Shown here piece after piece: positions 19,431 through 35,167 of a stretch of DNA of 35,831 nucleotides. Position 1 is the stretch's first letter; every line of letters starts with the position of its first letter. This DNA is from an uncultured virus (IMG/VR IMGVR_UViG_3300037297_000216) (taxonomy: Duplodnaviria; Heunggongvirae; Uroviricota; Caudoviricetes; Crassvirales). The DNA is taken from the IMG/VR virus record IMGVR_UViG_3300037297_000216, one strand, 5' to 3'. The translations under genes were made by a program, and so were the position numbers. The notes under the pieces were generated by a model, which did not search any database, was not told where the DNA came from, and worked only from the letters and a program-made list of their open reading frames with translations.

Positions 19431-21458
19431 TTAATCTTTAAAAGTAAAACCTAAATCAGAATTATATAAAAGACTTGGTATAAGAGAACTTAATAATGCA
19501 AGTTTTTCTTTATCTCTTTGAGTCATATTTTTCATTAACTTCCTTTGCTGAGCATATTGCTGTATTCCAGAAAGACCAGCACCCATCATTTTTCTCCTAG
19601 CAGCTTCATTCCTTAAATTAATGTCAGCTACATTATATCTTGTAGTAGCAATATCTTTACCTAAATACATATCAAATAAAGCCTGATCCCTTAAATATTG
19701 ATTTTCTACATTTTGTTTTTGAGCAATTGCTTCAGCATCAGCTCGTTGTCTTGCTGCTTGACCAGTCTGTAGATTAGCTAAGTACCTTGCTTTACTGGGA
19801 GCTGCTTGCCTCACACCATAATTATACGTAGATTGAGCTAATCTGTTTCGTTCTAATATAGGATTTATATTGAATTTTCTATTTTTCAATGTATTTCTTA
19901 TATCGCTTATATAAGGATTCTGAAAATCCCTAGCATTTAACCTTGTAGGACTTTTTAAACCTTGGCTGATATTATAAGCTATAGGAGCTAATGTAGCACC
20001 AGTATTAAATATATCTTCGTAAGGAATATTAGAAAAATCAAAACCTCTAGTTGGAGCAGTAGGAATAGTATTCAAATAATCAGTCAACCCTTGAGTCATT
20101 GGTAAAGATGGATTTCCTTGATTAATTTTTCCAGAAATGGGAGTTACAGGAGTTAACAAATTACTTGTATAATCTTTTCCATAAGTTTGAAACATTTTAT
20201 TTGTCTCTGGTCCATATATATTATCAGGAGATATCCCATAAAAAGACTGAAAGTCTCTCATATACTGAGGATTCTCGGTGAAAAAAGAAGCACCTTCAGT
20301 TTCTTCGTATCCTGGTAATATTTTCATCCCCCCTTGTCCTTTTTTCAAAGAAGGATATTTATGATATACTTTTGCTTTAACATCTGGTCTATGATGCAGT
20401 CCAGCTAAACGTAATGCATCAACTGCATCTGCCTTAGTAGGTATAGGATATGATCTTCCTCCACCAGCAAAATCACCTGATTTAACCATAGGATAAGCCT
20501 TAGTTTTACCTTTACCTTTAGGATATCTGTCTGTTGCACCAGATAATCCCCCACCTGCAAATACTTCCATACCTTCAGCTCCTTTCCTACTACGAGCCAT
20601 TTTACGAAAAGTTTTAGCTAAATTATACCTTTTAGACCCGGGAGGACAACTTGAACTACCAAATTTAGAACCAGTACATACTCCTTCAGTTCCCCTACGT
20701 TTTATACTGGCAGTAGCTTTTTGAATCCATTTACCTCCCTTAGCAAATTCTTCCATATTATTTTCTCCACCATTTTGTATTTGTTGATCTTCAAATAAAT
20801 CATCAAACTTACGTTGTATCTTATTTAACATTAAACCAGCAGTATTAGATGTTATACCTACTGGATTCTCTAACAAAGATTCCTCATATTTATTTTGAAG
20901 CTTTTTTAATTTAGAGCCTAATTGTTTATAAGTTTTATCTCCTCCTGGTCTTAATTTTCCTAATACATCAGTTCCACTAGGTAACTGAGTAATAACTCCT
21001 CCTTGTGCATGGGAAGGAGCACTGTCTGGTATTTTATAAAGTTTACCATCTGGAGTCCTATAAACTTCACCTTTTTCTAGTTCTACCACATCTGATGTCA
21101 TTCCACCATCCTGCATTATTGGGACATAAGGATTGTACGAAGACCTAGTCGGATCCATTGCCTCACGCTGCATTGCATGTTGTCTTTCTAACTCCTCATT
21201 GTATTTTTTTGCCTTACGCTTAGCGCCAAAAGCTCCAATAAAAGACAGAGGTCCTAACGCTATATTTTTTAAAAGCCCTTGACCAAAAGCTTTCTTTGGA
21301 TCCATAAAACCTTCATCGCTCAAATCATTTAAACCTACTAAATCCCCAATACTAGAGCCTAGTTGATTAATAAGATTAGCTCCAGAAGACATCAATGATA
21401 CAGGGTTTACATTTCCCCCAGACTGCATTCGCCTTATTCGTTTACTTTTACAAGCCAT
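19431..21458 (-). CDS. Cargo protein 1-like virion protein with repeated xxxGG motifs, 675 aa
   Basis: Directly follows the muzzle gene (TAATG overlap). Gly/Ala-rich hydrophobic N-terminal stretch, VELEKGEV...PSHAQGGV motif, recurring MQSGG/MQDGG/FAKGG/FAGGG/GQGG, and a Gln/Ala-rich helical C-terminus. Confidence 0.7.
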   Translation of the reverse strand: MACKSKRIRRMQSGGNVNPVSLMSSGANLINQLGSSIGDLVGLNDLSDEGFMDPKKAFGQGLLKNIALGPLSFIGAFGAKRKAKKYNEELERQHAMQREAMDPTRSSYNPYVPIMQDGGMTSDVVELEKGEVYRTPDGKLYKIPDSAPSHAQGGVITQLPSGTDVLGKLRPGGDKTYKQLGSKLKKLQNKYEESLLENPVGITSNTAGLMLNKIQRKFDDLFEDQQIQNGGENNMEEFAKGGKWIQKATASIKRRGTEGVCTGSKFGSSSCPPGSKRYNLAKTFRKMARSRKGAEGMEVFAGGGLSGATDRYPKGKGKTKAYPMVKSGDFAGGGRSYPIPTKADAVDALRLAGLHHRPDVKAKVYHKYPSLKKGQGGMKILPGYEETEGASFFTENPQYMRDFQSFYGISPDNIYGPETNKMFQTYGKDYTSNLLTPVTPISGKINQGNPSLPMTQGLTDYLNTIPTAPTRGFDFSNIPYEDIFNTGATLAPIAYNISQGLKSPTRLNARDFQNPYISDIRNTLKNRKFNINPILERNRLAQSTYNYGVRQAAPSKARYLANLQTGQAARQRADAEAIAQKQNVENQYLRDQALFDMYLGKDIATTRYNVADINLRNEAARRKMMGAGLSGIQQYAQQRKLMKNMTQRDKEKLALLSSLIPSLLYNSDLGFTFKD

Positions 21459-24400
21459 TATCTATTAGATATTCTATATTTAATATTCATATAAGGTATA
21501 GAAAATTCATACCCAGTAGAAGAATTATTTTCATATATAAAACTACAATATAAAAACGAACTCCTCATTCTTTCTCTAAAAGTTTGAGTAGTATCTAAAT
21601 TTGAAGAATCAAAAATATCAGGATCATTAGATACATCTTTATCAACTGCGTTTCTTGGAATACCAAATGTCCAATTTCTTTCTCGTCTTTTCAAAGCTAG
21701 TTCTTTAAGTACATTATTGTTCATACTGATATTACTTTTCATTTCCCATGTATCAGTATTTTGATAATCATTGTAAAAATTTGCATATGTAAACGTAGTA
21801 TCAAATAAGTTTTTCCTAACCCCGGTAGTATCGTTTATATAATTAACTTCTGAAAAATATTCAATATTGTCCCACACCTTAATAAATGGATAATTTTCAT
21901 TACATATGAAAGTAACCTTTGAATCAGAAACTCCATTGTTATAATAACTACAACGAGTATCTGAAACATTGTGTTTATACACTCCACTACTATTTTGTTC
22001 CTCAATTGAAAGAACATTTTTATCTAACGTAATAAACATAAAAGGTTGGTACGTAAAAAAAGGACAAAACACTCCATCTAATTCATTATATACTAAAGTA
22101 TTTTCCTTCGACCCATCATTAGTTATAGAGAATAAAACATCATCATAAGTATTATCAAAAGTACCTTCAACAGAATCTATTGAAGTTAACCCCTTTAAAT
22201 ATGAATCTACTCCTTTTAACTTAGAAATTTTATTTTCATTACCATTAAAAAAATAAACTTCTTTACGTTTCTCATCAATCCAATAAATTCCTCTTTTACT
22301 TTTTACAACTCCAAATCTACTAGAAGAACCAGAAGTATTAGAAATATAATCATACCTATCTAAAACACCTCCAGTACCTAATACTAATTGATTAGTATTA
22401 TTATCAGAAATCAAAGACCTTTCATTTACAGAGAGAACTCCAAAACCATTTGGTTGAAAGTAAAATACTTTATCCTTAAAATTAAATAAGTTAGTTAACT
22501 CTCCATAGTTACTATCAACATCTAAAAAATTATTTGCTCTAAATTTTGTCCAACTATCACTAATTTCATTATTGTATTTTTTATCTGAAACTAATACCCT
22601 TGTGTCAAATTTAGTTAAATCAAAATCTAAAGAAGTTTCAGAAATTCTTGACTCAACTTTAGGTTCAATTGAATAAACAGTATTATATAAATAATAATCA
22701 TTATCTTGAACAAATGTTCCAGAAGCAGTATCATGTTCCCCTGCTGTTTCTCTAACCCAAGTAGCATCAACTTTACCCTTTATTCTATGATAAGAATCTC
22801 CATGATCATATGCAAGATTAATTTGAGATTCCACTGGAAAATACATAACATGAATACGCCTATCCCCAGAAGATTCATTTATATGATAAGTACAGCGAAG
22901 ATGATCAAACATATTTATATAACAATCTCCTCCATACACTGTTATCTGAACCCCGTCATAAGATGAATCATATCTGTTTGAACAGGGATAATATTCATTA
23001 AAAAATCTATCTGTATAAGTTATTCCCCCATATCTTGAAGTATCTACATTTCTTTTTATACAAGCATAATATATAGAATGATCGTTAGTTAAATCAGCAG
23101 CATAATAAATATCTGGTCCAGTAACATTAGAAGTAAGATCTAAAATAGCAGCTGTTCCACAAGGACCTTTATCAGTTGAAAAAGGACTATCAGCTCCTTT
23201 ATCTGTACACATATGAACATAAGGAGTAAAAACTCCTATAGAATATTCTGTATCTTCTGTTGGCGGATTTGGTGAAAGAATTTTTAAATCATCAATATCA
23301 TAAACAGGCCTATTTGAAGTACCAGGTTTTACATAAGAATTATATTTTATGAAAGATTTATCTGTACTATAATAACTACAATAATCATCCATAACATATA
23401 AAACATATAACATATCCCCTTGTGTATATTGATATTGCCCATAATTTATTTCTGGGGACATAAAAGAAAATAAATCATTATCAGGATTATCTCCTCCATA
23501 ATATCCGGCAGCCCCAGATAATTTAGCTTCAATCGGAGAAACATACATACTTAACCCAGAATCATAATAAGTATGACTAAGAGCTCCACATGCTACCACA
23601 GATTTATCGACATTCGTCCTTTCAGCTCTAACTATTCTAAAATATTCTACATCACTAGGTAAATTACTGATAGTAAACTTTATATTTAATATATTTGCTA
23701 CAATATCTGTACCACTTCTATATATTCTACTACCAGAAGCATAATGCTCTAACCTAGGCATTCTAATATCCCCAATCCATTTGGCAGTAGCTTCTCTCCC
23801 TTTAGCATCTCCGCATACTACAGCAAAACGATATACCTCATCAGGCTGATAACCTACAATATCTTCATTAAAAGGGTTAGCATAAGTAGTATAAGAATTA
23901 ACTCCATCTTGAGACAACACTAAACTTTCTGCGCCAGAATCGCCAGCAGAATAAGTTCCTCCAGTTCTTATATCTCCTTTAGTTACAGAAGCATCAGATT
24001 CTATAGTTATAACATTTGAACCATAACCATACAAAAATTCATACTCTACATTCAATCCAGAACCCCCAACTGTACTAGCATCATTTTGATAATAATATCC
24101 TTCAACTGAAATATTATTAAAATAATTTATACAATCAGCATCCTCCGGAACAGTCCACCCAGTTCCATGAGTTCCTGTATATACAGAACCTGAAGTAAAG
24201 TACTCCCAATCTCCTAAAGTAGCTGGACCTCCTTGACCTGTTCTAGTAACCCCGGCAGCATATACATAATAATAACTTCCATCTGATTGGTATAACTTAG
24301 CTACACCGCTAGAATTAAACCTATAAGACCTAACATCGAAATCAACTTCAAAAGTATCTTCTTCTATATTACCAAATAATAAATAATCATTTTTAGTAGT

Positions 24401-25396
24401 AATTTCTTTAGCAGAAAATAAAATATTACTATAAGTTACAAAATCCTCTAAACTTATTTCACTTACCGTAACTCCATTATCAGTAATATATAAATAAGTA
24501 CCAGTAGTTACTTCGACTTCCTTAACAATAGAAATAGTAGGAATTCCATTATATTCCTCATAATGAATTCTTATTAGTCTAACATAATCATAAGAATCAT
24601 CATTTTCTATTCTTAGTCTAAACCCTTTTCCACTATACTCACCACTGTCTCCTCCTCTAAACTTTGAAGCATCAACAAAAGCATATGATGAAGTAGAAAC
24701 GCTTATCTTGTCTGATAAGGGAGAATACAAACTTTCATTACCGTTCAAATTAAAAAACTGATATGCATAATAAACAACGCCAGTAATAAGACTTCCACCA
24801 GTTATTTTATTTATTACAGGTTTTCTTAGATAGGCTTTATCTATAAAATCTAATTTATGTACAGATACATAGTCATTACTTCCACTATAAGGTAGTCCGT
24901 CAGTTGTATTATTCGTAGCAATATTTATTCTTCTACTTAATTCGCTACCATCACACCAATAAACATTAATTAAATCATCATTCTCATATCGACCAACTGC
25001 TTTTACTCTGTTACTTAAAGAAAACCCTAAAGTACTTCCATCTTCTGTATCATAATCAGCAAAAACAGTACTAACGGAAACTAATTCTTCATTATCATCT
25101 AATTCTACCTTATATATACTACTTACTGAAGAACCGTCATAAGTAAATACAACTAAATAATTCCTAACTAAACAATACCCAACAATATACTCAGTAACCG
25201 GTATTCCAGTTACAGGAAATTTAATATAAGTATTAGACATTCCCTTATTATTTTTGAGAATAGTCTTCTTACCTTCTTTATCAGCAACTAATCTAAAATT
25301 TTCAGCATGATAAAAAGAATTATTTGGAATGATACTTTTATCAAAGTCCTTGTTCATCCCACCGTTAAAAGTGTGTGTAACAACTTTAGTAGCCAA
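21458..25396 (-). CDS. Tail muzzle / tail stabilization protein (P22 gp10-like position), 1312 aa, TTG start
   Basis: N-terminal HTFNGGMNKD...FYHAENFRL. Internal YRFAVV...AKWIGDIRMP, FMSPEI, VYGGDCYINMF and DSWTKFRANNFLDVDSNYGELTNL...LGTGGVLDRYDYIS. C-terminal RRERNW...RMRS. These motifs, the beta-rich composition and the synteny fit crAss-like muzzle proteins. Confidence 0.85.
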   Translation of the reverse strand: MATKVVTHTFNGGMNKDFDKSIIPNNSFYHAENFRLVADKEGKKTILKNNKGMSNTYIKFPVTGIPVTEYIVGYCLVRNYLVVFTYDGSSVSSIYKVELDDNEELVSVSTVFADYDTEDGSTLGFSLSNRVKAVGRYENDDLINVYWCDGSELSRRINIATNNTTDGLPYSGSNDYVSVHKLDFIDKAYLRKPVINKITGGSLITGVVYYAYQFFNLNGNESLYSPLSDKISVSTSSYAFVDASKFRGGDSGEYSGKGFRLRIENDDSYDYVRLIRIHYEEYNGIPTISIVKEVEVTTGTYLYITDNGVTVSEISLEDFVTYSNILFSAKEITTKNDYLLFGNIEEDTFEVDFDVRSYRFNSSGVAKLYQSDGSYYYVYAAGVTRTGQGGPATLGDWEYFTSGSVYTGTHGTGWTVPEDADCINYFNNISVEGYYYQNDASTVGGSGLNVEYEFLYGYGSNVITIESDASVTKGDIRTGGTYSAGDSGAESLVLSQDGVNSYTTYANPFNEDIVGYQPDEVYRFAVVCGDAKGREATAKWIGDIRMPRLEHYASGSRIYRSGTDIVANILNIKFTISNLPSDVEYFRIVRAERTNVDKSVVACGALSHTYYDSGLSMYVSPIEAKLSGAAGYYGGDNPDNDLFSFMSPEINYGQYQYTQGDMLYVLYVMDDYCSYYSTDKSFIKYNSYVKPGTSNRPVYDIDDLKILSPNPPTEDTEYSIGVFTPYVHMCTDKGADSPFSTDKGPCGTAAILDLTSNVTGPDIYYAADLTNDHSIYYACIKRNVDTSRYGGITYTDRFFNEYYPCSNRYDSSYDGVQITVYGGDCYINMFDHLRCTYHINESSGDRRIHVMYFPVESQINLAYDHGDSYHRIKGKVDATWVRETAGEHDTASGTFVQDNDYYLYNTVYSIEPKVESRISETSLDFDLTKFDTRVLVSDKKYNNEISDSWTKFRANNFLDVDSNYGELTNLFNFKDKVFYFQPNGFGVLSVNERSLISDNNTNQLVLGTGGVLDRYDYISNTSGSSSRFGVVKSKRGIYWIDEKRKEVYFFNGNENKISKLKGVDSYLKGLTSIDSVEGTFDNTYDDVLFSITNDGSKENTLVYNELDGVFCPFFTYQPFMFITLDKNVLSIEEQNSSGVYKHNVSDTRCSYYNNGVSDSKVTFICNENYPFIKVWDNIEYFSEVNYINDTTGVRKNLFDTTFTYANFYNDYQNTDTWEMKSNISMNNNVLKELALKRRERNWTFGIPRNAVDKDVSNDPDIFDSSNLDTTQTFRERMRSSFLYCSFIYENNSSTGYEFSIPYMNIKYRISNR

Positions 25397-26327
25397 CTGT
25401 TAAAATATTTACTCTATTTCTATAAAAAGTATCATTATAAATTTTCTGTTCTTGACCAGAAGTTGAAAAAAATGTAGAATGATCAGTTAATTCAGGCACT
25501 AACTCTAACCACTTATTTTTAATACTTTCTAACTGATCTGCATTAGGCATAATAACATTTGCATAAGCTTGTTTGCAATAAAAATTCCACTTATGTTCAG
25601 CATGATAATATACTCTATCCGTTATTCTTCCTGAAACCCATTCTGGATACAAAAGTTTAACTCTTATATACCAATATACAGCCTCTATATAACCCGGGTC
25701 ATCGGGTATTAAAGGATATCCGTCTGAATCAGTAGGTATAGCTTGATATGCTATCATTAAATACCCGTTACGAACATTTAACTTTATATAATTACTATTA
25801 AGAGTATAAGTATAATCAAATGAAAAATCTGTTGTATTGTCTGTAATTCTAAAACTATCTATATTCAACAAAGAGGTTAATTTTTCTTTGGTAATAGAAT
25901 CTGTATTTATCAACTCTAAAGCATCTTCGTAACTTAAATTATATAAATCCATAGCTAATTGAATAAGAGTACTCTCACTAGCTACAAACCCAGAAGATGA
26001 AGAATCAGTAACAGGTTGACGAGTTGCAAAAGAATTATAATTATATCTAAGAGGAAGAAAATTACCAGTAGGAGAAGTAGAATATGCAATGCCTAATATT
26101 CTATAAACATCGTCTGGAAGCTCTGCCTGATAATTGCTTACAGTTAGTAAAGGTTCGCCTTCTTTCCCTGCAACTTTTATATTATATTGACCAAACCCTC
26201 CAATCTTTTCTACAGCTTCTCCAATCCACTCTACTATATCAGAAATACGAACGGTTTCTTCTTGAATATTTGAATCCGTTAATACCTTTGATATTATCCG
26301 TTTAGAAGAAATTTGTTTATAAATCAT
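25386..26327 (-). CDS. Tail ring / tail tubular protein
   Basis: Start moved from TTG 26333 to ATG 26327 (MIYKQISSKRIISKV). EWIGEA and IAYQAIPTDSDGYPLIPDD...EAVYWYI...WNFYCKQA motifs. Immediately upstream of the muzzle gene as in crAss-like tails. Confidence 0.8.
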   Translation of the reverse strand: MIYKQISSKRIISKVLTDSNIQEETVRISDIVEWIGEAVEKIGGFGQYNIKVAGKEGEPLLTVSNYQAELPDDVYRILGIAYSTSPTGNFLPLRYNYNSFATRQPVTDSSSSGFVASESTLIQLAMDLYNLSYEDALELINTDSITKEKLTSLLNIDSFRITDNTTDFSFDYTYTLNSNYIKLNVRNGYLMIAYQAIPTDSDGYPLIPDDPGYIEAVYWYIRVKLLYPEWVSGRITDRVYYHAEHKWNFYCKQAYANVIMPNADQLESIKNKWLELVPELTDHSTFFSTSGQEQKIYNDTFYRNRVNILTVGY

Positions 26328-26799
26328 ACTCAAAATAATCTTTTAATCTATTTTTAATATATTTAGCTAAAGTACGCTTTACAGTTCTAGTAGGAATAAA
26401 TCTATACTTGGATATATTCTTAGTCATTGCATTTCTTTTATTCCAGTAAAATAAATATTTATATCCATCACTGTGCTCATTTAAATGTGTAACTTTTTTA
26501 CCACATTCTAAAGTAGTATGCCAATCTGTACTATAAAATCTTTTAACTTGATTTTCAGGTTTTATTTTCTTTTTAATTATTTGAAAAGTTCCTAATCCAC
26601 TTATTAACTTAAATTTATCAGAATCTTCTAAAATAACATTAATAATTTTTTTAAAATAAGAAGTAGTCAATCTAACATATGTAGAATATGATATATAATA
26701 AGGACTATCTTTCTCTAAATTTTTTATATAATCCTTATACATATGCCTAACAGTATAAGGACTTTTTATCTTATTTGATCCTCTACTAAAAAAAGCCAC
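26317..26799 (-). CDS. IHF/HU-like basic DNA-binding protein of the crAss-like tail module, 160 aa, GTG start
   Basis: Very Lys/Arg-rich. FKLISGLGTFQIIKKK resembles the HU/IHF 'l.gfG.F.v' strand, followed by DW..T, HLNEHSDGY and YRFIPTR. Located between two ring genes. Confidence 0.7.
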   Translation of the reverse strand: MAFFSRGSNKIKSPYTVRHMYKDYIKNLEKDSPYYISYSTYVRLTTSYFKKIINVILEDSDKFKLISGLGTFQIIKKKIKPENQVKRFYSTDWHTTLECGKKVTHLNEHSDGYKYLFYWNKRNAMTKNISKYRFIPTRTVKRTLAKYIKNRLKDYFEYDL

Positions 26800-27504
26800 T
26801 TACTTAGAAATATTAGGTTCAAACTTACTATTAGAATCTCCTTTATTATCACTAGGAGAAACAGCCTCTATCCCCAACTCTTTAGTTAGAATTAACTCTT
26901 TAAGAACTGGGATTTTATCCATAGGAATAGGATATTTATCATCATAAGAAGCTACTCTTTGATTAGTTAAAGGATTTGTAAGTTCATAAACTTCAACAGG
27001 ATTCTCAAATATTCCCCTAACTAAAATATATTGCAAACCTTTATTATTATTATAAAGATATATATATCTATCTTTCAAATAAGCTATCACATCGTTAGAA
27101 GTATATTTTTTATATTTTTGATGATTAGTTCTACTAACTCCATTTGAAAGCTGTATTTCATTACCTGATAAATCCCCGACATGGGTTATACCTGATTTAA
27201 AATTTAAATCTATCGTATTAGGAACATTTAAAGAAGTTCTATAAATATATTTTCCAGTTGAAATAGTAGTATCACTGCCAGCCAAATCCTCTTTTACTAA
27301 TTTAAAAGGAATATTTTGAATATAGTCTGTATCAACAAATTTATTTTTATCTAAATCCCTTTTTAAAAGAAAAGCTCTATATTGATGTATCCAAGCTTCA
27401 ATTTGTCTTTTTGATATAGGTTCACTAGAATTCAACTTTGATCCTCTAACAATATTTAAAAGATCATTAACTATACTATTAAGACTAACAAATTCTATAC
27501 TCAT
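26800..27504 (-). CDS. Tail ring (structural) protein, 234 aa
   Basis: SLNSIVNDLLNIVRG...ISKRQIEAWIHQYRAFLLK, VRGIFENP, YPIP and C-terminal PSDNKGDS motifs, plus position in the crAss-like tail block. Confidence 0.75.
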   Translation of the reverse strand: MSIEFVSLNSIVNDLLNIVRGSKLNSSEPISKRQIEAWIHQYRAFLLKRDLDKNKFVDTDYIQNIPFKLVKEDLAGSDTTISTGKYIYRTSLNVPNTIDLNFKSGITHVGDLSGNEIQLSNGVSRTNHQKYKKYTSNDVIAYLKDRYIYLYNNNKGLQYILVRGIFENPVEVYELTNPLTNQRVASYDDKYPIPMDKIPVLKELILTKELGIEAVSPSDNKGDSNSKFEPNISK

Positions 27505-27505
27505 T

Positions 27506-29266
27506 TTATTTAGTATTATGAACTTTTATTTCGGAGCCTCCTTTGAATTTTCTATCAAAAATTATAATTCGATTTCCCTCTTTATACTTTCTATCGTACA
27601 ATAAAATTTCTTTAGGTCCAAAAGTAACAAGTTGATATTCATAAGGACCAATATCACCAGCAATTCCACTAGGGATAGTTTTATGATCTAAATCTAATAC
27701 CCATGTTACTGATGTTGCCGAATCAACCTGGTACGAAGTAGATAAAGGTCGATATCTAATAGTATCTATAAATGTAGGTATATTACAAAATGAATTAGCA
27801 TCATACCCGTTCATTTGCCAGTCTTCAAGTGTTAAATCACTTGAAGTTCCTTCTCGCCAATATCCTATGCTATCAAAAAAATTATAATCGGATGTTAAAA
27901 CAACGTTTTGATGTATATAATAATAATAATTGCAATTATTGAATAAATTATTTTTTGATACTATAGTGTTGTTATCATCAGCATATGAATCTATAGCTCT
28001 GATTACATCTGTGAAAATATTATTCCAAATATTCACGTTATGATATCTCGTGTAAATTGCCCTGTCAAATCCTTCAACTATATTGTTATAAATATAAAAA
28101 CCATTTCCCGGTTTTATCCCGTTACAATCAGTTCCACATCCGTCAGGAGCTTCAATAAAATTTCTTCTAATCGTGTCTCCTTCAGCAATGGTTCCAAATC
28201 CAAATTCATTTGTAGAACTTGCAACCAACCAGTTATCTTCAAGTATACCCCAAGGTCCTCCATTACCTTCCCCGCAAGTTCCTCCAGGTTCAGGATCGTA
28301 ATCATGACTACACGAAATAACCCCTTTCCCCGTTAAACTTCCATATGTACTCATATAATTATGGTGAACATGATAATAATCCGCAACGCAATTTAATTGC
28401 ATGACACATCCTGTTCCTGCGGGAGCCCATCCACAATGCATGCATTTATTATATGCAAATTCAAGATGTTTTGATCTCCCGTAAAATCCCTCAGATCCAA
28501 CAGAGTCGAGAATGCAATTTAATATTTTTAAATATTCTGGAGTTTCTGCATTTACATTTGTCGTAAAAATCATGTGTAAATCAACCGTGGATGTTGAAAT
28601 TCCATGAATATACAGATTCCTTAATATTGAATAATCCGATATTGTCACCCGAATTGCATTACTAGAATTACCTGTTATTTCAAGATTTTCAAGTATAACC
28701 GTGTCTTCATTATTAATATCAAAAGCATACGTGTTGCTTCCCGCGTCAATATAAGGCAATGCCCCATTACCTCTGGCTCCTATAAACACATCATTCACGT
28801 TAAAATCAATTTGTGGATGGCTACTATATGTAGAATCCCTGTAATAAAAATAATAATAATGTGATGTAAAATTGTTATCATTATAACTCGCCGGGGTTTG
28901 ATTAACAATAGAATCGGAATGAGCTACATAAATATACACGCTTGCATCATCTGTCATCGTACTGTCAGTAATCCTATATGTGTACTTAAAAGTTTTTGAT
29001 TGTTGCAATTTTGCTGCATCCGAAAGTTCTATTTTACCCCCGCTTGTTATCGTGAACGCGTTAGCCGTATCTTGTACTTCGCTATATACAATACTGCAAA
29101 CATTACAAAGGGTATCCCTATTATAATTTATTGCCACTGCACCAATATCATCTCCATTTATAGCATCGAAGGGCATGACAAAATTATAATCATGTGCCAT
29201 ATCTACATTTTGCCCAAAACAAAATAAAGGTATAAACAATAATATAAAAAATAATAACCTCTTCAT
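27506..29266 (-). CDS. Secreted right-handed beta-helix (pectin-lyase-like) protein with cadherin-like N-domain and choice-of-anchor-Q-like C-terminal motif, 586 aa
   Basis: Signal peptide MKRLLFFILLFIPLFCFG|Q. AFTITSGGKIEL...YRITDS is cadherin-like. Repeated 'ILENLEI/ILRNLYI/IYNNIV/IWNNIF/KNNLF' rungs. DLD....P.....DIGPYEY motif. Many Cys. Confidence 0.7.
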   Translation of the reverse strand: MKRLLFFILLFIPLFCFGQNVDMAHDYNFVMPFDAINGDDIGAVAINYNRDTLCNVCSIVYSEVQDTANAFTITSGGKIELSDAAKLQQSKTFKYTYRITDSTMTDDASVYIYVAHSDSIVNQTPASYNDNNFTSHYYYFYYRDSTYSSHPQIDFNVNDVFIGARGNGALPYIDAGSNTYAFDINNEDTVILENLEITGNSSNAIRVTISDYSILRNLYIHGISTSTVDLHMIFTTNVNAETPEYLKILNCILDSVGSEGFYGRSKHLEFAYNKCMHCGWAPAGTGCVMQLNCVADYYHVHHNYMSTYGSLTGKGVISCSHDYDPEPGGTCGEGNGGPWGILEDNWLVASSTNEFGFGTIAEGDTIRRNFIEAPDGCGTDCNGIKPGNGFYIYNNIVEGFDRAIYTRYHNVNIWNNIFTDVIRAIDSYADDNNTIVSKNNLFNNCNYYYYIHQNVVLTSDYNFFDSIGYWREGTSSDLTLEDWQMNGYDANSFCNIPTFIDTIRYRPLSTSYQVDSATSVTWVLDLDHKTIPSGIAGDIGPYEYQLVTFGPKEILLYDRKYKEGNRIIIFDRKFKGGSEIKVHNTK

Positions 29267-30456
29267 TACCTGATTTCTTTCGCAATAATATAAGCAATTA
29301 AACCTGAAATAAGAATAATAACATATAACCCTAAAACTTTTATCTTTTTATATAATTCATTTAATTTATTCTCATGTTCTTCAATATATCTATAAGCATG
29401 TTCTACTCCCCAAAACAATTTTTGATTTACTTCCCAAAGATTTCCCTTTGTATTATGTTCTATTATAGTATCACCTTTTTCATTTATGTATTTCCAACCT
29501 AATTCTCCATTAACGGTATCCCTTAAAAACTCTACAATATCTATTAAACCATCCTTTAAACCAAACCCAGATGCTGCAGAAGTAGAATCAGCATATAAAA
29601 CTCCGCTGACAGAATCTATTAATATAACAGCCGGTTGACTAGGAATACCTGATAGAATACCTTTATAATAAATACTATCATTACATCTTAAAACTTTTCT
29701 AGTTGTAACTGAGTCTTTACTGTATGTAATAACCTCTTCACTGGAACACCAAACTGCAAGTTTATTAGAACTTATCCTTCCCCAACCAGCCTGTTCAGTA
29801 TAAACAGGTCTATACGTCATACCAGTTATACTATTATACAATGCAAATGAATAAGTAGGTCCAGCTCCAGTTATACCAATTATTACATCATCATCAAAAT
29901 CATAACGTTTACCCGTTGAAAAACATGCTCTATACCTGTTCTGACCAAAAGTAAAAAAACTATACTTTGTACTTCCTGACTTATACCCTATAGTATCATT
30001 ATCATTAGTAAACCATAAATTTTTACTAAATACAATATCTTGTCCAAAATCATCTATAGTAGCACTTCCTACATTATACAGTCCAGAACTCAAAGAAGTA
30101 AATGTATGTTCTTCTGTAGTATCGACAGCACTTTTTTTAATCGTATCTGCTGTTGGAATATAACTTGAAGTAACTCCTCCTAATATAATCTCATTCATAT
30201 TAATAGAATTAAAAGAATGAGTTTCTGCAGAATCTACTCCATATTTTTTGGATAATTTAACAATAGAATCATTGGTATGAATATAGTCCAGATATTCTTC
30301 CCCCGACACTTTAGCAGAATCACCAAGATCAGTATAACCTTCAACAGTTAAATTTCCTTTAAGCGTAACATTATTAAGTGTTTTAGTCTGAGAAAATATA
30401 TTTAACGACATCAAAGAAAAAACAACAATTAATAATATTTTAAAACTTTTTTTCAT
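29266..30456 (-). CDS. Secreted fibre-like protein with C-terminal chaperone-like coiled coil and C-terminal transmembrane anchor, 396 aa
   Basis: Signal peptide MKKSFKILLIVVFSLMSLNIFS|Q. Beta-rich fibre-like body. GNLWEVNQKLFWGVEHAYRYIEEHENKLNELYKKIK coiled coil, then hydrophobic VLGLYVIILISGLIAYIIA followed by KEIR. Confidence 0.6.
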   Translation of the reverse strand: MKKSFKILLIVVFSLMSLNIFSQTKTLNNVTLKGNLTVEGYTDLGDSAKVSGEEYLDYIHTNDSIVKLSKKYGVDSAETHSFNSINMNEIILGGVTSSYIPTADTIKKSAVDTTEEHTFTSLSSGLYNVGSATIDDFGQDIVFSKNLWFTNDNDTIGYKSGSTKYSFFTFGQNRYRACFSTGKRYDFDDDVIIGITGAGPTYSFALYNSITGMTYRPVYTEQAGWGRISSNKLAVWCSSEEVITYSKDSVTTRKVLRCNDSIYYKGILSGIPSQPAVILIDSVSGVLYADSTSAASGFGLKDGLIDIVEFLRDTVNGELGWKYINEKGDTIIEHNTKGNLWEVNQKLFWGVEHAYRYIEEHENKLNELYKKIKVLGLYVIILISGLIAYIIAKEIR

Positions 30457-30466
30457 ATTATATTTA

Positions 30467-30871
30467 TTAAATAATTTCAGCTCTATAAACTATTGTACAA
30501 TCTATCGGAACGGTAATAGTAAATCCATCTTCACTCTCACTATTTATTTGATAATCCACATTATTACCAGAACCATCATAACATCTTATAAGTAACATAT
30601 AATCTGTAGTATTTAATGTTGAAGAATATGAAATAGTATTTGGACTACCAGCCGCAGTAATTGACTCTTTTCCCTTACGAGAATCAGTATACCCAGTAAT
30701 ACCTGATACTCCAAATTTTAAAACTAAAGTATCATCAATATAAAACTTAAAATAATCATTTTCAAACCTAATTTCTCCCTCATCATTACCAGTCCTAAAT
30801 GTAAAACCTACAGAAGGAATAGTTACATTTCTAATAATATTTGGAATGTATCTATCAGAATATATACTCAT
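30467..30871 (-). CDS. Small beta-rich tail-fibre/lectin-like protein, 134 aa, no signal peptide
   Basis: EGEIRFEND..KFY fibre-type motif. C-terminal 'TISYSSTLNTTDYMLLI...SEDGFTIT....IVYRA' resembles small beta-sandwich fibre-tip domains. Confidence 0.45.
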   Translation of the reverse strand: MSIYSDRYIPNIIRNVTIPSVGFTFRTGNDEGEIRFENDYFKFYIDDTLVLKFGVSGITGYTDSRKGKESITAAGSPNTISYSSTLNTTDYMLLIRCYDGSGNNVDYQINSESEDGFTITVPIDCTIVYRAEII

Positions 30872-30874
30872 ACT

Positions 30875-31084
30875 TTATTTCTTAAAAATTAAATCATCAA
30901 TCTTTTTCTGTCTATCAGAAGCTTTTACTTTTTTTATATTAACAATAATAGCAGAAATACCAACTCCCACAGAAACGCAAAGAGCTATAAAACCCAGTAT
31001 AGGGGTAGCTTTTTCAATAAAATTATAAACAATAGATCCTAAAGGTAATGCAATTCCACTAAAATTCAATAACTTGTCTTTCAT
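30875..31084 (-). CDS. Small membrane protein (holin-like), 69 aa
   Basis: One clear TM segment (ILGFIALCVSVGVGISAIIV), an amphipathic N-terminal segment and a basic C-terminal tail. Function is inferred only. Confidence 0.45.
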   Translation of the reverse strand: MKDKLLNFSGIALPLGSIVYNFIEKATPILGFIALCVSVGVGISAIIVNIKKVKASDRQKKIDDLIFKK

Positions 31085-31108
31085 ACTTATATATATATAT
31101 GTTTAGGA

Positions 31109-31888
31109 TTAATACTCTGTTATTGGTGTACAAGTTGATATATCTTCGTCAACATTATCAACTTCACAAATTTCATAAGTACTATAATAAATCCTAAAAT
31201 CTTCTAATGTTGCTATCGTAAAATAATTATTATCTAATAGTTTTATTTCATTCCAGTTTGGATATTCACCATTTTTACGTTTCAAATGAACACTAATTTG
31301 ATTATTAGATTTGCGCTTGCAAATAAAATTCATGCTATTGCATATCTGTCTAATCGTATACCCTCCTACAACTTCATCCATATTAGCATAAGCCACAACG
31401 CCGTATAAGTCCCAGTTCCATATTTTTCCTCCCAAACTGTCTAATTTCCAAATATTGTTCATAGAGTACAACGTGTCTTTATCTTCGTCTAAATTAAACA
31501 TCCATATATTGTTATTTTTCAAATAAACATTCCATTCTTTATTTATAATTTGATTTTCTAGCTTTTGTTTAAAATCTGGATATTTTATCGCTGAATCTTT
31601 ATTAACTTTTATTACAGGCAGTTGTAAAGTATCAAATATGTATTTTTTCAAATATTTTTCCGTTGGACGATTTAATTTTATTTTGTACTTTGACAATGTG
31701 TTTGTATTGTTATACCATATATAATGCAATGCTTCCTGACGTGGATAACCATTAACATAATCAATACTGTCTATTTGTGATAAAACAATTGTATTATCAA
31801 AGTACAGAGTATCTATATTAATAATTTCTAATTGTGAATAACTTTTAATTCCAATTAATAATAATAATATTGCACTTAATTTTTTCAT
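31109..31888 (-). CDS. Secreted protein of unknown function, 259 aa
   Basis: Signal peptide MKKLSAILLLLIGIKSYS|Q. TAATG-coupled to the upstream LamG gene. No recognisable domain. Confidence 0.6.
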   Translation of the reverse strand: MKKLSAILLLLIGIKSYSQLEIINIDTLYFDNTIVLSQIDSIDYVNGYPRQEALHYIWYNNTNTLSKYKIKLNRPTEKYLKKYIFDTLQLPVIKVNKDSAIKYPDFKQKLENQIINKEWNVYLKNNNIWMFNLDEDKDTLYSMNNIWKLDSLGGKIWNWDLYGVVAYANMDEVVGGYTIRQICNSMNFICKRKSNNQISVHLKRKNGEYPNWNEIKLLDNNYFTIATLEDFRIYYSTYEICEVDNVDEDISTCTPITEY

Positions 31889-32940
31889 TATGGATTATAG
31901 TGTTTTGAAGATTGATATAAATTTGTTATTTCATTCGATGATAACGCACGATTATAAATTCTAATTTCATCAATATAGCCGTTTAAATTTACTGTACCAT
32001 TATTATTCCTTCCAATAAATGTAGTGCTTGGAATATAGATTGAATTTTCTCCAGTTGCGCTATATATAGAATTTAAATTTTGATAAACAATCCAATTGTC
32101 AATACCAGGCTCATTTGTTATTGTCAATAAATGCCAATTTGATTTATTAACACTTCCTGTTCCAATTGTAGGCCGATCATTTCTAAATATATCCATATAT
32201 ATAGTTCCAGATGTGTAAGGATAATGGGTGGATGGAGATGTTCCAAGATAACATAATCCACTTTTTGCAATGGTTGTTGGAACATTATTTTTTAATTTGA
32301 CATATAATGAAAATGTAGCCTTACCACTAAAATAACTTGTTAAATTAGGCAAAATTATATAATCATTAATACCGTCATAATACCAACAACTTGAATCAGT
32401 TTCAATCCATATCCCCATTGGTTGGTAAGCTCCAGTTGTTTGAGTTCCATTGTCACCATAAATAGACTGATCGACAATTAATCCGTCACAACCCACGAAA
32501 AATTCATCTCCTATATTTGCCGTACATATTTGATCTAATTTTATTGAATCAATACTACCAAGAGTATCAAGTATTGTATAAATTGTTCCCGATTCAGGAT
32601 CACCAAAACGTATTGAATTTCCTATAACTACATGATCCGTACTATCAACAACAACGGTATCATTACTTGCCCATACAATTGTATCTCCCGTTGAATTGTA
32701 AGTTAATCCAGATTTTGTAACATTTTTTGAATCAAACCACAAAACTAATGAAGTATCTCCTCCTGAAATATAATTCCCGTCATTAATAATAATATCTCCT
32801 TTTTTATCTATATAAACAATATTATCATTTGTATTATATATATTATCAATTTCCCAAGTACTTCTATTTATTTTAGGCAACCATTGAGAAAATACACTAA
32901 AGCTTATAAACCACAACAAAATAAATATTCCCCACTTCAT
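31888..32940 (-). CDS. Secreted LamG/concanavalin-A-like lectin-domain protein, 350 aa
   Basis: Signal peptide MKWGIFILLWFISFSVFS|Q. LVLWFD...DQSIYGDNGT...YDGINDYIILP...TFSLYVK...WHLLTIT...FIG...LNGYIDEIRIYNRALSSNEITNLY is the LamG-like (Laminin_G_3) signature. Confidence 0.85.
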   Translation of the reverse strand: MKWGIFILLWFISFSVFSQWLPKINRSTWEIDNIYNTNDNIVYIDKKGDIIINDGNYISGGDTSLVLWFDSKNVTKSGLTYNSTGDTIVWASNDTVVVDSTDHVVIGNSIRFGDPESGTIYTILDTLGSIDSIKLDQICTANIGDEFFVGCDGLIVDQSIYGDNGTQTTGAYQPMGIWIETDSSCWYYDGINDYIILPNLTSYFSGKATFSLYVKLKNNVPTTIAKSGLCYLGTSPSTHYPYTSGTIYMDIFRNDRPTIGTGSVNKSNWHLLTITNEPGIDNWIVYQNLNSIYSATGENSIYIPSTTFIGRNNNGTVNLNGYIDEIRIYNRALSSNEITNLYQSSKHYNP

Positions 32941-32944
32941 CTTA

Positions 32945-33427
32945 TTATTCTAATTCTTGTGGATACATTTTATCTAAATTACTTCCGTCATAAATTAACG
33001 TATCAGACTCAAAAGAAATTAAAATAGTATCTCCATTATATGTAAAATAAATCTTACGTTCAATTAAATTATCACTACCATCATAACTAAAATCGACTAA
33101 ATATCTCTTAGCTTTCATTTTAAGTAAAGTAGCGTGTAAATCTGAAACATCATCAAAAGTAGAATCTCCATTAGTAGACCATAAGACATAATCTATCGAA
33201 AAAGGTTTAACATTTGACGTTCTCGGTACAACCCTAACCTCGGTAGAACTAACTGTTTCAATTGCTGAAATTTCAGATTTATCTAGAACAGTTATATGAT
33301 AAGCATCTGCAGCCCTAAATTGAATCATATCCCCTAAATCAGTAATAGTATAATTTTGTGACATACTAGAAGCACAAAATAAAACTAAAGTACTTACTGC
33401 TATAATTAATTTTTTTATAATATTCAT
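32945..33427 (-). CDS. Secreted protein of unknown function, 160 aa
   Basis: Start moved to ATG at 33427, which removes the overlap with the upstream gene and gives the signal peptide MNIIKKLIIAVSTLVLFCASSMS|Q. C-terminal YDGSDNL/YDGSNL repeats. Confidence 0.6.
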   Translation of the reverse strand: MNIIKKLIIAVSTLVLFCASSMSQNYTITDLGDMIQFRAADAYHITVLDKSEISAIETVSSTEVRVVPRTSNVKPFSIDYVLWSTNGDSTFDDVSDLHATLLKMKAKRYLVDFSYDGSDNLIERKIYFTYNGDTILISFESDTLIYDGSNLDKMYPQELE

Positions 33428-33432
33428 AATTT

Positions 33433-33711
33433 TTAACTTAAATCTAACCAATAATTTCCTTCAGTTATATCATTTATCTTTTGCATAATATCTTCTGCTT
33501 CTGCTATAGTAAAAAAATTATCATCACCTGTAATAGTATCCCTAAGATAATAATCCATTATTTCTACATAAGCTTTAAGAAGAATTAATTTTATTTTCTC
33601 AACATTTCGTTTTACATTTAAATTAACATTCTCACGTAAAGCTAAATTATATGTATAATCACTAAAAGCAGAATTTATATCTAATAAATATTGTTGTTCT
33701 GTTGCTGTCAT
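33433..33711 (-). CDS. Small helical tail protein (possible tail hub B-like), 92 aa
   Basis: Compact helical ORF ending FTIAEAEDIMQKINDI. Position downstream of a hub-A-like gene and upstream of ring genes. Confidence 0.4.
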   Translation of the reverse strand: MTATEQQYLLDINSAFSDYTYNLALRENVNLNVKRNVEKIKLILLKAYVEIMDYYLRDTITGDDNFFTIAEAEDIMQKINDITEGNYWLDLS

Positions 33712-33715
33712 AATA

Positions 33716-35167
33716 TTAAGGATAACTTATATAATTCATTCTAACTATCATACTATGTACTATCCAAACTCCAGTAAGACCGGTTACTTGAACTCTAAGA
33801 CTCGGGCCTCCTCCAACTGAAAATGTTACAACTGGAACAGAACCATGTACAGATGTAAAAGAATCAACAACTTCTCTAGGAGTAGTATGAGTACTTCCAA
33901 CTAAGGAAATATTTGTTTTATCTCCAATAGTTCCTCCATAATATATAGCTCTATACAATGCTGATGGAGTATAAGTTATATCATGAGACATTGCAAGATA
34001 TTCTATTTCAAACGAAGTACAAGAATGTCCATTTAAATACAACGGATCTGTCCCTAATATATACATGTCAGAAATAGTATTGTTATCAGTTTTTCTACAC
34101 ATATGAAACTCTCTGCCTTGAATAGTTGTATCTTGAGTACCTCCTGGAAATCCTCCCCCAAATTCCACAGTATTCCCAGAAAATACTCTTTCAGTTTTAT
34201 AAAAAGCATTCGAAAAATAACCATGTGCAAAAGCATAATGAGCATTACGAACATCACTTCCACAATATCCTTTATTTATAGCAAACCCATCATTTGAATA
34301 ATAAACTTTTCCATCATTAAATGCAGTAGAACCTCCAGTTAACCCCGCATCATTCATATTAATTGATCCATCATTAGCAGTAAAATTACGTTTCACTAAA
34401 TCAACATCATTTCCATATCCAATTATTGTTCCTCCAAAAGATATCGAATAAGGAGACCACATTACAAAAGTATCTGGTGGATAAATAGCTTCAAACCCAT
34501 ATGCACTAGAAGTACCTGCTTTTAAAATACCACTTGCTAAATTATAACTTCCATTAAGAATTATAGTTGAGTTATCAACATTACTAGCAGCCCCGTCTTC
34601 AGTCATTAATTCCCAAGAATCCCCGTCCCATATATATGACCTGCCTAATGTTGAATTCCTGTAAGCATCATTTGTATCAGGACTAACCGGAGCTGTAGAA
34701 AAAGTACCTAACCAATTAATACTAATTCCATTATCTCCAGTTGCACCAGTGTCGCCAGTTGCACCAGTGTCGCCAGTATCTCCCTTAGCTCCTTCTTTAC
34801 CTTTAAAAACTGATATCTTCCTGTATACAGTATTTTCCCCAAATTTCGTCGCTTTGGCTACAAAATTTCCAGTATCAGCAGTAATAGCTGTTACAGAAAT
34901 AGTATTACTAACTACATTTACAGTTACATTAGAAGTACTTTCAGCTGTTATCGTCCATTCGGAAGTAACATCTGTTCCTTTATAATTAACTAAAAAAGTA
35001 ACATTTGCTTCAGTATAAACTGGATTATTTCCATCTCCATCAGTAGGAATAACTAAGCAATCTCTATTTGATATTAAAAGATATGAACTTAGTTCACTAG
35101 CTACACTAGGATTAAAAAATGTAGAAACATCATTACTAGGACTACTAATTACTACGGTTGACGCCAT
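33716..35167 (-). CDS. Tail fibre protein with Ig-like N-domain and short collagen-like segment, 483 aa
   Basis: IPTDGDGN...VTSEWTIT...ISVTAITADTG Ig-like tail module. (GXY)8 run. INWLG...YIWDGDSW fibre motif, VDNSTI motif and Gly/Ala-rich fibre repeats. No signal peptide. Confidence 0.75.
   Translation of the reverse strand: MASTVVISSPSNDVSTFFNPSVASELSSYLLISNRDCLVIPTDGDGNNPVYTEANVTFLVNYKGTDVTSEWTITAESTSNVTVNVVSNTISVTAITADTGNFVAKATKFGENTVYRKISVFKGKEGAKGDTGDTGATGDTGATGDNGISINWLGTFSTAPVSPDTNDAYRNSTLGRSYIWDGDSWELMTEDGAASNVDNSTIILNGSYNLASGILKAGTSSAYGFEAIYPPDTFVMWSPYSISFGGTIIGYGNDVDLVKRNFTANDGSINMNDAGLTGGSTAFNDGKVYYSNDGFAINKGYCGSDVRNAHYAFAHGYFSNAFYKTERVFSGNTVEFGGGFPGGTQDTTIQGREFHMCRKTDNNTISDMYILGTDPLYLNGHSCTSFEIEYLAMSHDITYTPSALYRAIYYGGTIGDKTNISLVGSTHTTPREVVDSFTSVHGSVPVVTFSVGGGPSLRVQVTGLTGVWIVHSMIVRMNYISYP
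34737..34777. repeat. Perfect 18-bp tandem repeat (2.3 copies) encoding GDTGAT collagen units
   Basis: + strand ccagttgcaccagtgtcg x2 followed by ccagt. Confidence 0.9.

Follow-up and report, generated by a model that had tools for sequence, protein, structure and literature searches.

Five genes in the block 27506–33427 of a 35,831-nucleotide DNA sequence from an uncultured crAss-like virus (IMG/VR IMGVR_UViG_3300037297_000216; the whole stretch is hereafter called the window) encode proteins with predicted signal peptides that are strongly enriched in the tripeptide D-(S/T)-(A/I/L/V/M/T). This tripeptide is the sequon of the general O-glycosylation system of the Bacteroidota, in which extracytoplasmic proteins with the motif are modified and the motif is enriched in exported proteins (PMC12871550). 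The motif is in excess in the five proteins, the excess is restricted to exported proteins and to proteomes of the Bacteroidota type, and the motif is conserved in phage homologues through substitutions that preserve it. Taken as a whole, these observations are best explained if the five phage proteins are substrates of the host O-glycosylation machinery, which we consider probable on the sequence evidence.

Sequon excess in the five exported proteins

Sequons were counted with the regular expression D[ST][AILVMT] in translated open reading frames (ORFs), the 168-residue version that starts at a TTG codon being counted for the last gene. The expectation was obtained from mononucleotide-composition shuffles (20,000 for the five exported proteins). 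An earlier reading of the sequence (the original prediction) had counted 11, 12, 6, 5 and 3 sequons by hand in the proteins of 586, 396, 259, 350 and 160 amino acid residues, and the regular expression gave identical figures. The control counts, given as sequons over D[ST] dipeptides, were also borne out, being 14/25 for the RNA polymerase (RNAP)-sized protein (4205 residues), 5/24 for the muzzle (1312 residues) and 1/9 for a fibre protein (483 residues).

The five proteins together contain 37 sequons among 41 D[ST] dipeptides in 1759 residues, or 2.1 per 100 residues, which reproduces the reported contrast with the 5 of 24 in the muzzle. The remaining 11 ORFs of the window contain 30 sequons among 90 D[ST] dipeptides in 9993 residues, for which about 31 are expected from shuffling. 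Pooled shuffles of the five proteins gave a mean of 7.68 (standard deviation 2.64, maximum 20) against the 37 observed, and the enrichment persists under this control for composition (z = 11.1). The observed count was reached by none of 20,000 shuffles for the 586- and 396-residue proteins and by one of 20,000 for the 259-residue protein.

The excess lies in the third residue. It is permissive after 37 of 41 D[ST] dipeptides, compared with a background of 0.36 (binomial p = 7.6e-13); for the other ORFs of the window the figure is 30 of 90 (Fisher p = 4.3e-10). Neither the reversed motif h[ST]D (7 in the five proteins vs 51 elsewhere in the window) nor E[ST]h (1 vs 35) is enriched. The residues found at the third position are I (13), L (7), T (6), V (6), A (5), S (2), Y (1) and K (1), an order resembling that at real glycosites, and glycoproteomics also finds Ser at this position (PMC12871550). 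Two of the four non-strict D[ST] sites in the five proteins end in Ser (DTS and DSS). All 37 sequons are in soluble regions; the leaders, the C-terminal helix and the membrane anchor have none. No pairwise similarity was found among the five proteins, so the enrichment is not that of one repeated gene. The absence of a glycosyltransferase from the window, another element of the original prediction, held for Pfam searches of every ORF of at least 100 residues.

Export signals

In all five proteins a K/R is followed by a hydrophobic stretch and then by a small-x-small junction before Gln. The predicted cleavage junctions have Gln at +1 in five of five cases, the preceding residues being FG, FS, YS, FS and MS in the proteins of 586, 396, 259, 350 and 160 residues, respectively. 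All 12 members of the 350-residue protein family retain this junction, as do 11–12 of the 13 leader-bearing members of the 396-residue protein family. [quoted passage not shown] Type IX secretion cargo was considered as an identity for the five proteins and rejected, as no sorting domain of the Por_Secre_tail/TIGR04183 type was found in them (Pfam E ≤ 0.01, NCBIfam E ≤ 0.05).

Conservation of the motif in phage homologues

The 586-residue protein is 76% identical to a homologue (P0004) in which 10 of the 11 sequons are kept and the eleventh is changed to DSS. At 68% identity, a homologue of the 396-residue protein (P0002) keeps 9 of 12 sequons, two being lost in a deletion and one changed to DTC, while all five sequons of the 350-residue protein are kept at 62% identity (P0027). 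Among 13 sequon sites altered at position 2 or 3, 11 are still sequons (chance 0.36, p = 4.6e-4), examples being DTV to DSI and DTT to DTA. The proposal that the sequons are under selection in the phage proteins is upheld by this pattern: sites are kept in the homologues, which vary the letters and preserve the motif.

The trend extends to more distant homologues. The 396-residue protein family, with members at 20–35% identity, contains 167 sequons against 35.7 expected, with 83% of D[ST] dipeptides permissive. The sequon at D260 is kept in 16 of 17 members and that at D290 in 15 of 17; the other sites turn over and the number of sequons stays high. In the 350-residue protein family there are 50 sequons against 23.6 expected, and D86-T-I/V is invariant (11/11 in an alignment of 12 homologues).

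Sequons in related phages and in cellular genomes

Related loci were collected by an alignment scan with ring protein 2, which gave 80 loci; their 1256 ORFs fell into 383 clusters when grouped at 60% identity. A hydrophobic N-terminus marks 32 of these clusters, which contain 84 sequons against 24.9 expected (3.4-fold), with 72% of D[ST] dipeptides permissive. The 351 other clusters, one row of which is a truncated copy of the 586-residue protein of the window, contain 482 against 498.7 expected (0.97-fold), with 37% permissive. The observed number exceeds the expected in 17 of the 22 hydrophobic N-terminus clusters of at least 150 residues. Many of these clusters are N-terminally anchored proteins of about 200–235 residues encoded beside the holin, with 3–7 sequons against 0.5–0.9 expected. 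Counterparts are known in cultured phages: in crAss001 gp27 (L153 25093–25695) all four D[ST] dipeptides are sequons (0.3 expected), and in Flavobacterium phage Fpv1 gp37 (L156 3185–3946), which matches DUF6549 at 28.7 bits, all five are (0.7 expected). The holin-adjacent anchored proteins are candidate glycosylated lysis proteins in cultured phage–host pairs. Holin-adjacent anchored proteins of about 200–250 residues, which are also present at L002 8792–9430 and L003 19446–20048, give matches to DUF6549 and weak matches to Rz-like spanins.

In one related locus (L008, 51% identity in ring protein 2), four leader-bearing proteins of 182, 864, 159 and 549 residues are encoded around ring protein 2 (6547–13944). 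The 864-residue protein has 14 sequons against 4.3 expected and the start of the 549-residue protein resembles a Pel9A-type beta-helix; the 159-residue protein alone of the four is homologous to a protein of the window. The set of exported proteins is exchanged between related phages.

The identical hydrophobicity rule was applied to exported ORFs of bacterial genomes, and comparison with host-type secreted proteins agreed with the original prediction. In Escherichia coli K-12 (200 kb) the 19 exported ORFs contain 20 sequons against 20.1 expected (0.99-fold, 44% of D[ST] permissive), and in a Patescibacterium (94 kb) the 16 exported ORFs contain 19 against 18.2 (1.04-fold, 35% permissive). In the Bacteroidota member Limnovirga soli (560 kb) the 124 exported ORFs contain 329 against 136.2 (2.42-fold, 71% permissive), or 0.63 sequons per 100 residues, and its other proteins are at 1.12 times expectation. 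Exported ratios in three further genomes of the same Genome Taxonomy Database (GTDB) phylum are 2.03-fold (G010), 1.28-fold (G042) and 1.44-fold (G039). The five proteins of the window stand at 4.8-fold with 90% permissive, and their density is about 3–3.3 times that of the L. soli exported proteins. Of 170 exported proteins sampled from Bacteroidota, 14 reach 1.43 sequons per 100 residues and one reaches 3.03; the five window proteins (1.43–3.03) are in the top 8% of those 170.

Features of the individual exported proteins

The 586-residue protein (27506..29266, minus strand) has a signal peptide, MKRLLFFILLFIPLFCFG, followed by Gln, and 11 sequons among 12 D[ST] dipeptides between residues 51 and 515. 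Pfam Beta_helix is matched at E 1.3e-4 and 22.1 bits, under the cut-off of 25.9, and no match was found in a sequence search of the PDB. The ESM Atlas model (predicted template-modelling score (pTM) 0.82) has template-modelling (TM) scores of 0.55–0.64 to beta-helix/Pel9A-like clusters. The body of the protein is thus modelled as a right-handed beta-helix, Pel9A-like, with the Pfam match sub-threshold.

The 396-residue protein (29266..30456, minus strand) has a signal peptide ending in NIFS before Gln, and all 12 of its D[ST] dipeptides, between residues 46 and 329, are sequons. A long C-terminal helix is followed by a C-terminal membrane anchor. A full HMMER search gave a rare family of 18 members, known from metagenomes only, the complete members of which share one architecture: the leader is followed by a variable stretch, then by some 100 conserved residues towards the C-terminus, the long helix and the anchor. 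The AlphaFold2 model from the family alignment is confident for residues 300–396 only (mean predicted local distance difference test (pLDDT) 51). When this low-confidence model was compared with 48,161 chains using VIA, the long C-terminal helix alone was matched (best Z 5.1), and the top rows from Foldseek against BFVD were fibre/S74 proteins at a TM of only 0.1–0.2. The nearest ESM Atlas clusters are tail fibres with Peptidase_S74, at a language-model score of only 0.83. A Peptidase_S74 C-terminus is a lead that profile searches do not support for this protein: PF13884 matched none of the 18 members (E ≤ 1), and there was no profile match in the PDB.

The 259-residue protein (31109..31888, minus strand) has a signal peptide ending in KSYS before Gln and six sequons among six D[ST] dipeptides between residues 26 and 150; no Pfam, PHROG or NCBIfam match was found.

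The 350-residue protein (31888..32940, minus strand), with a signal peptide ending in SVFS before Gln, has five strict sequons among eight D[ST] dipeptides. Laminin_G_3 is matched over residues 189–338 (Pfam E 4.5e-14, 53.3 bits vs a cut-off of 27.6). In the family the N-terminal domain (about residues 59–190) is nearly invariant and the Laminin_G_3 domain is hypervariable, with the last 30 residues conserved. The strict sequons (residues 86–131) and the DTS at residue 62 are all within the conserved domain, the DSS at residue 182 is at its C-terminal edge, and the Laminin_G_3 domain has zero sequons. Judged from sequence features, the predicted layout is the one expected of a receptor-binding protein whose specificity changes by exchange of the tip; even so, a Sec leader is present in each of the 12 members.

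The 160-residue protein (32945..33427, minus strand) has three sequons among three D[ST] dipeptides and a signal peptide, MNIIKKLIIAVSTLVLFCASSMS, followed by Gln. The ORF extends to 168 residues from the TTG at 33451; the ATG at 33427 is probably the true start because a textbook leader (MNIIKK...) begins there, eight codons after the TTG. Its homologue in L008 is 44% identical and has a signal peptide. PHROGs gave no match for any of the five exported proteins.

Gene order and family of the phage

The hallmarks of the Crassvirales are present in the window, namely the muzzle, tail ring proteins 1 and 2 and a giant ORF of virion RNAP size. Pfam matches are crAss_MUZ (9e-202), CrAss_Ring_1 (7e-84) and CrAss_Ring_2 (8e-48), and the nearest named relatives of ring protein 1 are crAss-like phages of the Suoliviridae, at about 40% amino acid identity. 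Every ORF of at least 100 residues is on the minus strand, and the guanine-plus-cytosine (GC) content is 0.26–0.35. Read in the direction of transcription, the gene order opens with a pair of fibre-type proteins that lack leaders (208 and 483 residues), after which comes the exported block in the order 160/168, 350, 259, 134, 396 and 586 residues. Downstream of the block are ring protein 2, a second 160-residue protein, ring protein 1 and the muzzle, and past the muzzle are two proteins of about 680 residues and then the RNAP-sized protein.

The muzzle, ring protein 1, the 160-residue protein between the rings and ring protein 2 (21458..27504, minus strand) are tail parts assembled in the cytoplasm, and their sequons are at chance level (5/24, 1/6, 0/2 and 1/3 of D[ST], respectively). 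The 483-residue tail-fibre-like protein (33716..35167, minus strand), which matches PHROG tail-fibre families and, weakly, collagen repeats, lacks a signal peptide and serves as a fibre-type negative control, with one sequon among nine D[ST] dipeptides. An internal negative is provided by the 134-residue protein (30467..30871, minus strand), which lies inside the exported block, has no signal peptide and has one sequon among two D[ST] dipeptides, a count reached by 1147 of 2000 composition shuffles.

The closest related contig (G001, 21.5 kb) begins within the 586-residue protein gene and the remainder of the block is not on it; when viral contigs were scanned with the proteins of 586 and 396 residues as queries, the result was this contig or nothing. 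In cr10_1, the closest named relative, a reverse transcriptase is encoded (L003 14930–15970) between giant fibre genes and lysis genes, and occupies the region where the window has the exported cassette.

Discussion

In the proposed scheme, the tail-fibre module of this crAss-like phage, which would infect Bacteroidota, contains the block as a cassette of five late genes that are unrelated to one another. The product of each would pass through the host Sec system and its leader would be cleaved before Gln according to the Q-rule. In the periplasm the general O-glycosylation system of the host would transfer glycan to the D-(S/T)-(I/L/V/T/A) sites, and the resulting heavily glycosylated proteins would function in the cell envelope or extracellularly. 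We infer export and glycan transfer because the host system glycosylates engineered and foreign motifs, and glycosylation works across species (PMC12871550). Because the host machinery would modify them, the phage would gain glycosylated exported proteins with no glycosyltransferase in the window. The likely benefit, which is conjectural, would be a glycan coat for stability, shielding or recognition.

The tripeptide could instead be a structural by-product without any sugar, in which D-(S/T) ends a turn and the hydrophobic residue after it starts a beta-strand. The AlphaFold2 model of the 350-residue protein family, which is of low confidence (pLDDT 39.5), places several sequons right before predicted strands, and D260 and D290 are also the most conserved residues of the 396-residue protein family. 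However, leaderless beta-rich proteins are without excess, both in the window (5/24, 1/9 and 1/3) and in cr10_1 (6/17 and 5/21), and so are the exported proteins of E. coli and Patescibacteria. The excess is also common to five unrelated folds, and in the 396-residue protein family the sites shift position while their number stays high; we therefore regard a purely structural origin as improbable. A slightly less probable origin is a recent capture of the genes from the exported proteome of the host, with the sequon load passive and not under selection in the phage. Such a capture would accord with the 2.4-fold enrichment in the exported proteins of a Bacteroidota genome and with the variability of the block among related phages, as the 160-residue protein alone has a homologue in the 80 loci, but homologues in hosts were not found. 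A search of 301 genomes from the phylum with the profile of the 396-residue protein family produced weak matches to the leader region and no genuine one. The 586-, 259- and 350-residue proteins gave no more than two short marginal matches in a collection with a single genome per species for 185,579 species, single-protein scans being a method that reaches close relatives only. The homologues are on phage-like contigs. A member of the 396-residue protein family (P0015, L087 10001–11446) is encoded among the structural genes of an unrelated viral contig of 81.9 kb, where it is flanked by head-type and muzzle-like genes and adjoins another leader-bearing protein, a setting that speaks against a host gene having been carried over passively. 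Against capture there are also the sequon density (3.3 times that of L. soli exported proteins, with all five proteins in the top 8% of the 170), the motif-preserving substitutions between phage homologues and the GC content of the block (0.27–0.33), which is similar to that of the rest of the phage.

It is also conceivable that the motif is selected and is read by a periplasmic protease, a chaperone or a metal site and not by the O-oligosaccharyltransferase. The present data do not tell which factor reads the motif, and the excess is above that of host proteins. We nevertheless give such a reader very little credence, as none is known to us and none was found in the literature examined. The glycosylation sequon as described (PMC12871550) is also matched by the motif itself, by the strict Asp at its first position (a single E[ST]h in 1759 residues) and by the spectrum of third residues.

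Several observations weigh against glycosylation by the host as the explanation. The signal peptides were called by a home-made hydrophobicity rule and not by a trained predictor. The counts in the 350- and 168-residue proteins are not significant alone, because 648 and 2380 of 20,000 shuffles, respectively, reach them. Two members of the 350-residue protein family have one sequon each, and only one of the 13 crAss001 ORFs with a hydrophobic N-terminus carries sequons, the other 12 having none. Sequon usage differs between genomes of the phylum. Exported ratios are 0.83-fold in G015 (420 kb) and 0.38-fold in G030, though both carry SusD genes, and the subset with Q-rule leaders keeps the split (0.72-fold in G015 and 0.15-fold in G030). 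Pooling 20 genomes of the phylum gave only 1.23-fold, from the first 20 kb or less of each and with enriched and unenriched lineages mixed. On the exported proteins of G030 and G015, some lineages of the Bacteroidota appear to avoid the motif, and its enrichment is not seen in every species of the phylum (PMC12871550). Both G030 (C1:900001–1000000) and G015 (C1) are low-GC genomes. Finally, gp085–087 of Cellulophaga phage phi18:3 (L197 2891–8583), neighbouring proteins with confirmed Sec leaders ending in SQ/AQ, have one sequon each against 2.9–3.6 expected (3 vs 9.6 in total). As these proteins are leadered yet sequon-poor, export is not always paired with sequons. Their scarcity of sequons fits a phage sequon load that follows the host lineage.

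More tentatively, the five proteins may be host-recognition gear that folds and is O-glycosylated in the periplasm and joins the cytoplasm-built particle only at lysis, a possibility that we consider doubtful. The beta-helix protein would form a spike, and a fibre-like trimer would be released from a C-terminal module anchored in the membrane; a lectin whose tip can be exchanged and two partners would complete the set. Such a particle would be that of a tailed phage whose appendages bear glycans made by the host. This arrangement is suggested, indirectly, by the position of the block between ring protein 2 and the leaderless fibres, by the fibre-, spike- and lectin-type features, and by a LamG tip that is hypervariable and free of sequons, carried on a conserved stalk that bears them. 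It is also suggested by the record for phi18:3, in which leader-bearing proteins (gp085–087) are annotated as virion or tail proteins from tandem mass spectrometry (MS/MS).

To our knowledge, general O-glycosylation in the Bacteroidota, for which Fletcher 2009 and Coyne 2013 are reportedly the primary papers, has been known only for modifying envelope proteins that the cell itself encodes. The five proteins resemble its substrates in their predicted extracytoplasmic location and in the sequon, but the substrates described in the available text of PMC12871550 are all bacterial and phages are nowhere mentioned in it, whereas those considered here are phage-encoded and predicted from sequence. 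No description of phage-encoded substrates was found in full-text literature searches (supplements excluded). The findings support the view that these putative phage substrates add a new class to those of a system already known.

Porphyromonas gingivalis phages encode proteins of unknown function with Q-rule signal peptides, which were read as an adaptation to host secretion (PMC10367356). Like the window proteins they are phage-encoded and have host-type Sec leaders exposing Gln, but they are accessory genes of temperate siphophages, and glycosylation is not mentioned in the available text of PMC10367356. The phi18:3 proteins are similar in being adjacent Sec-leadered proteins of a Bacteroidota phage; they differ in being sequon-poor and in belonging to another phage family (Pachyviridae), and no homology with the window proteins was seen. 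Crass001 gp27 (annotated as 'lysis regulatory protein') and Fpv1 gp37 are N-anchored and periplasm-facing, with every D[ST] a sequon, but are single proteins of lysis cassettes and are not homologous to the five-gene cassette of the window. Mycobacteriophages with glycosylated virions use their own glycosyltransferases, which modify capsid and tail proteins in the cytoplasm. The likeness is in O-linked sugars on phage proteins, which in the present case are predicted. The difference is in the route, since the mycobacteriophages have their own transferases and a host periplasmic route is proposed here, with no transferase seen in the window.

If host glycosylation of these proteins is correct, the life cycle of a phage group that ranks among the most abundant in gut and environmental microbiomes would include it, and host glycosylation mutants would be candidate phage-resistance or phage-attenuation mutants. 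A cultured pair suited to the question is crAss001 with Bacteroides intestinalis. Sequon density in leader-bearing phage genes would also provide a cheap signal of host lineage, the motif being enriched in the window, crAss001 gp27 and Fpv1 gp37 and depleted in phi18:3. The finding bears on why fibre- and lectin-type phage genes have secretion signals.

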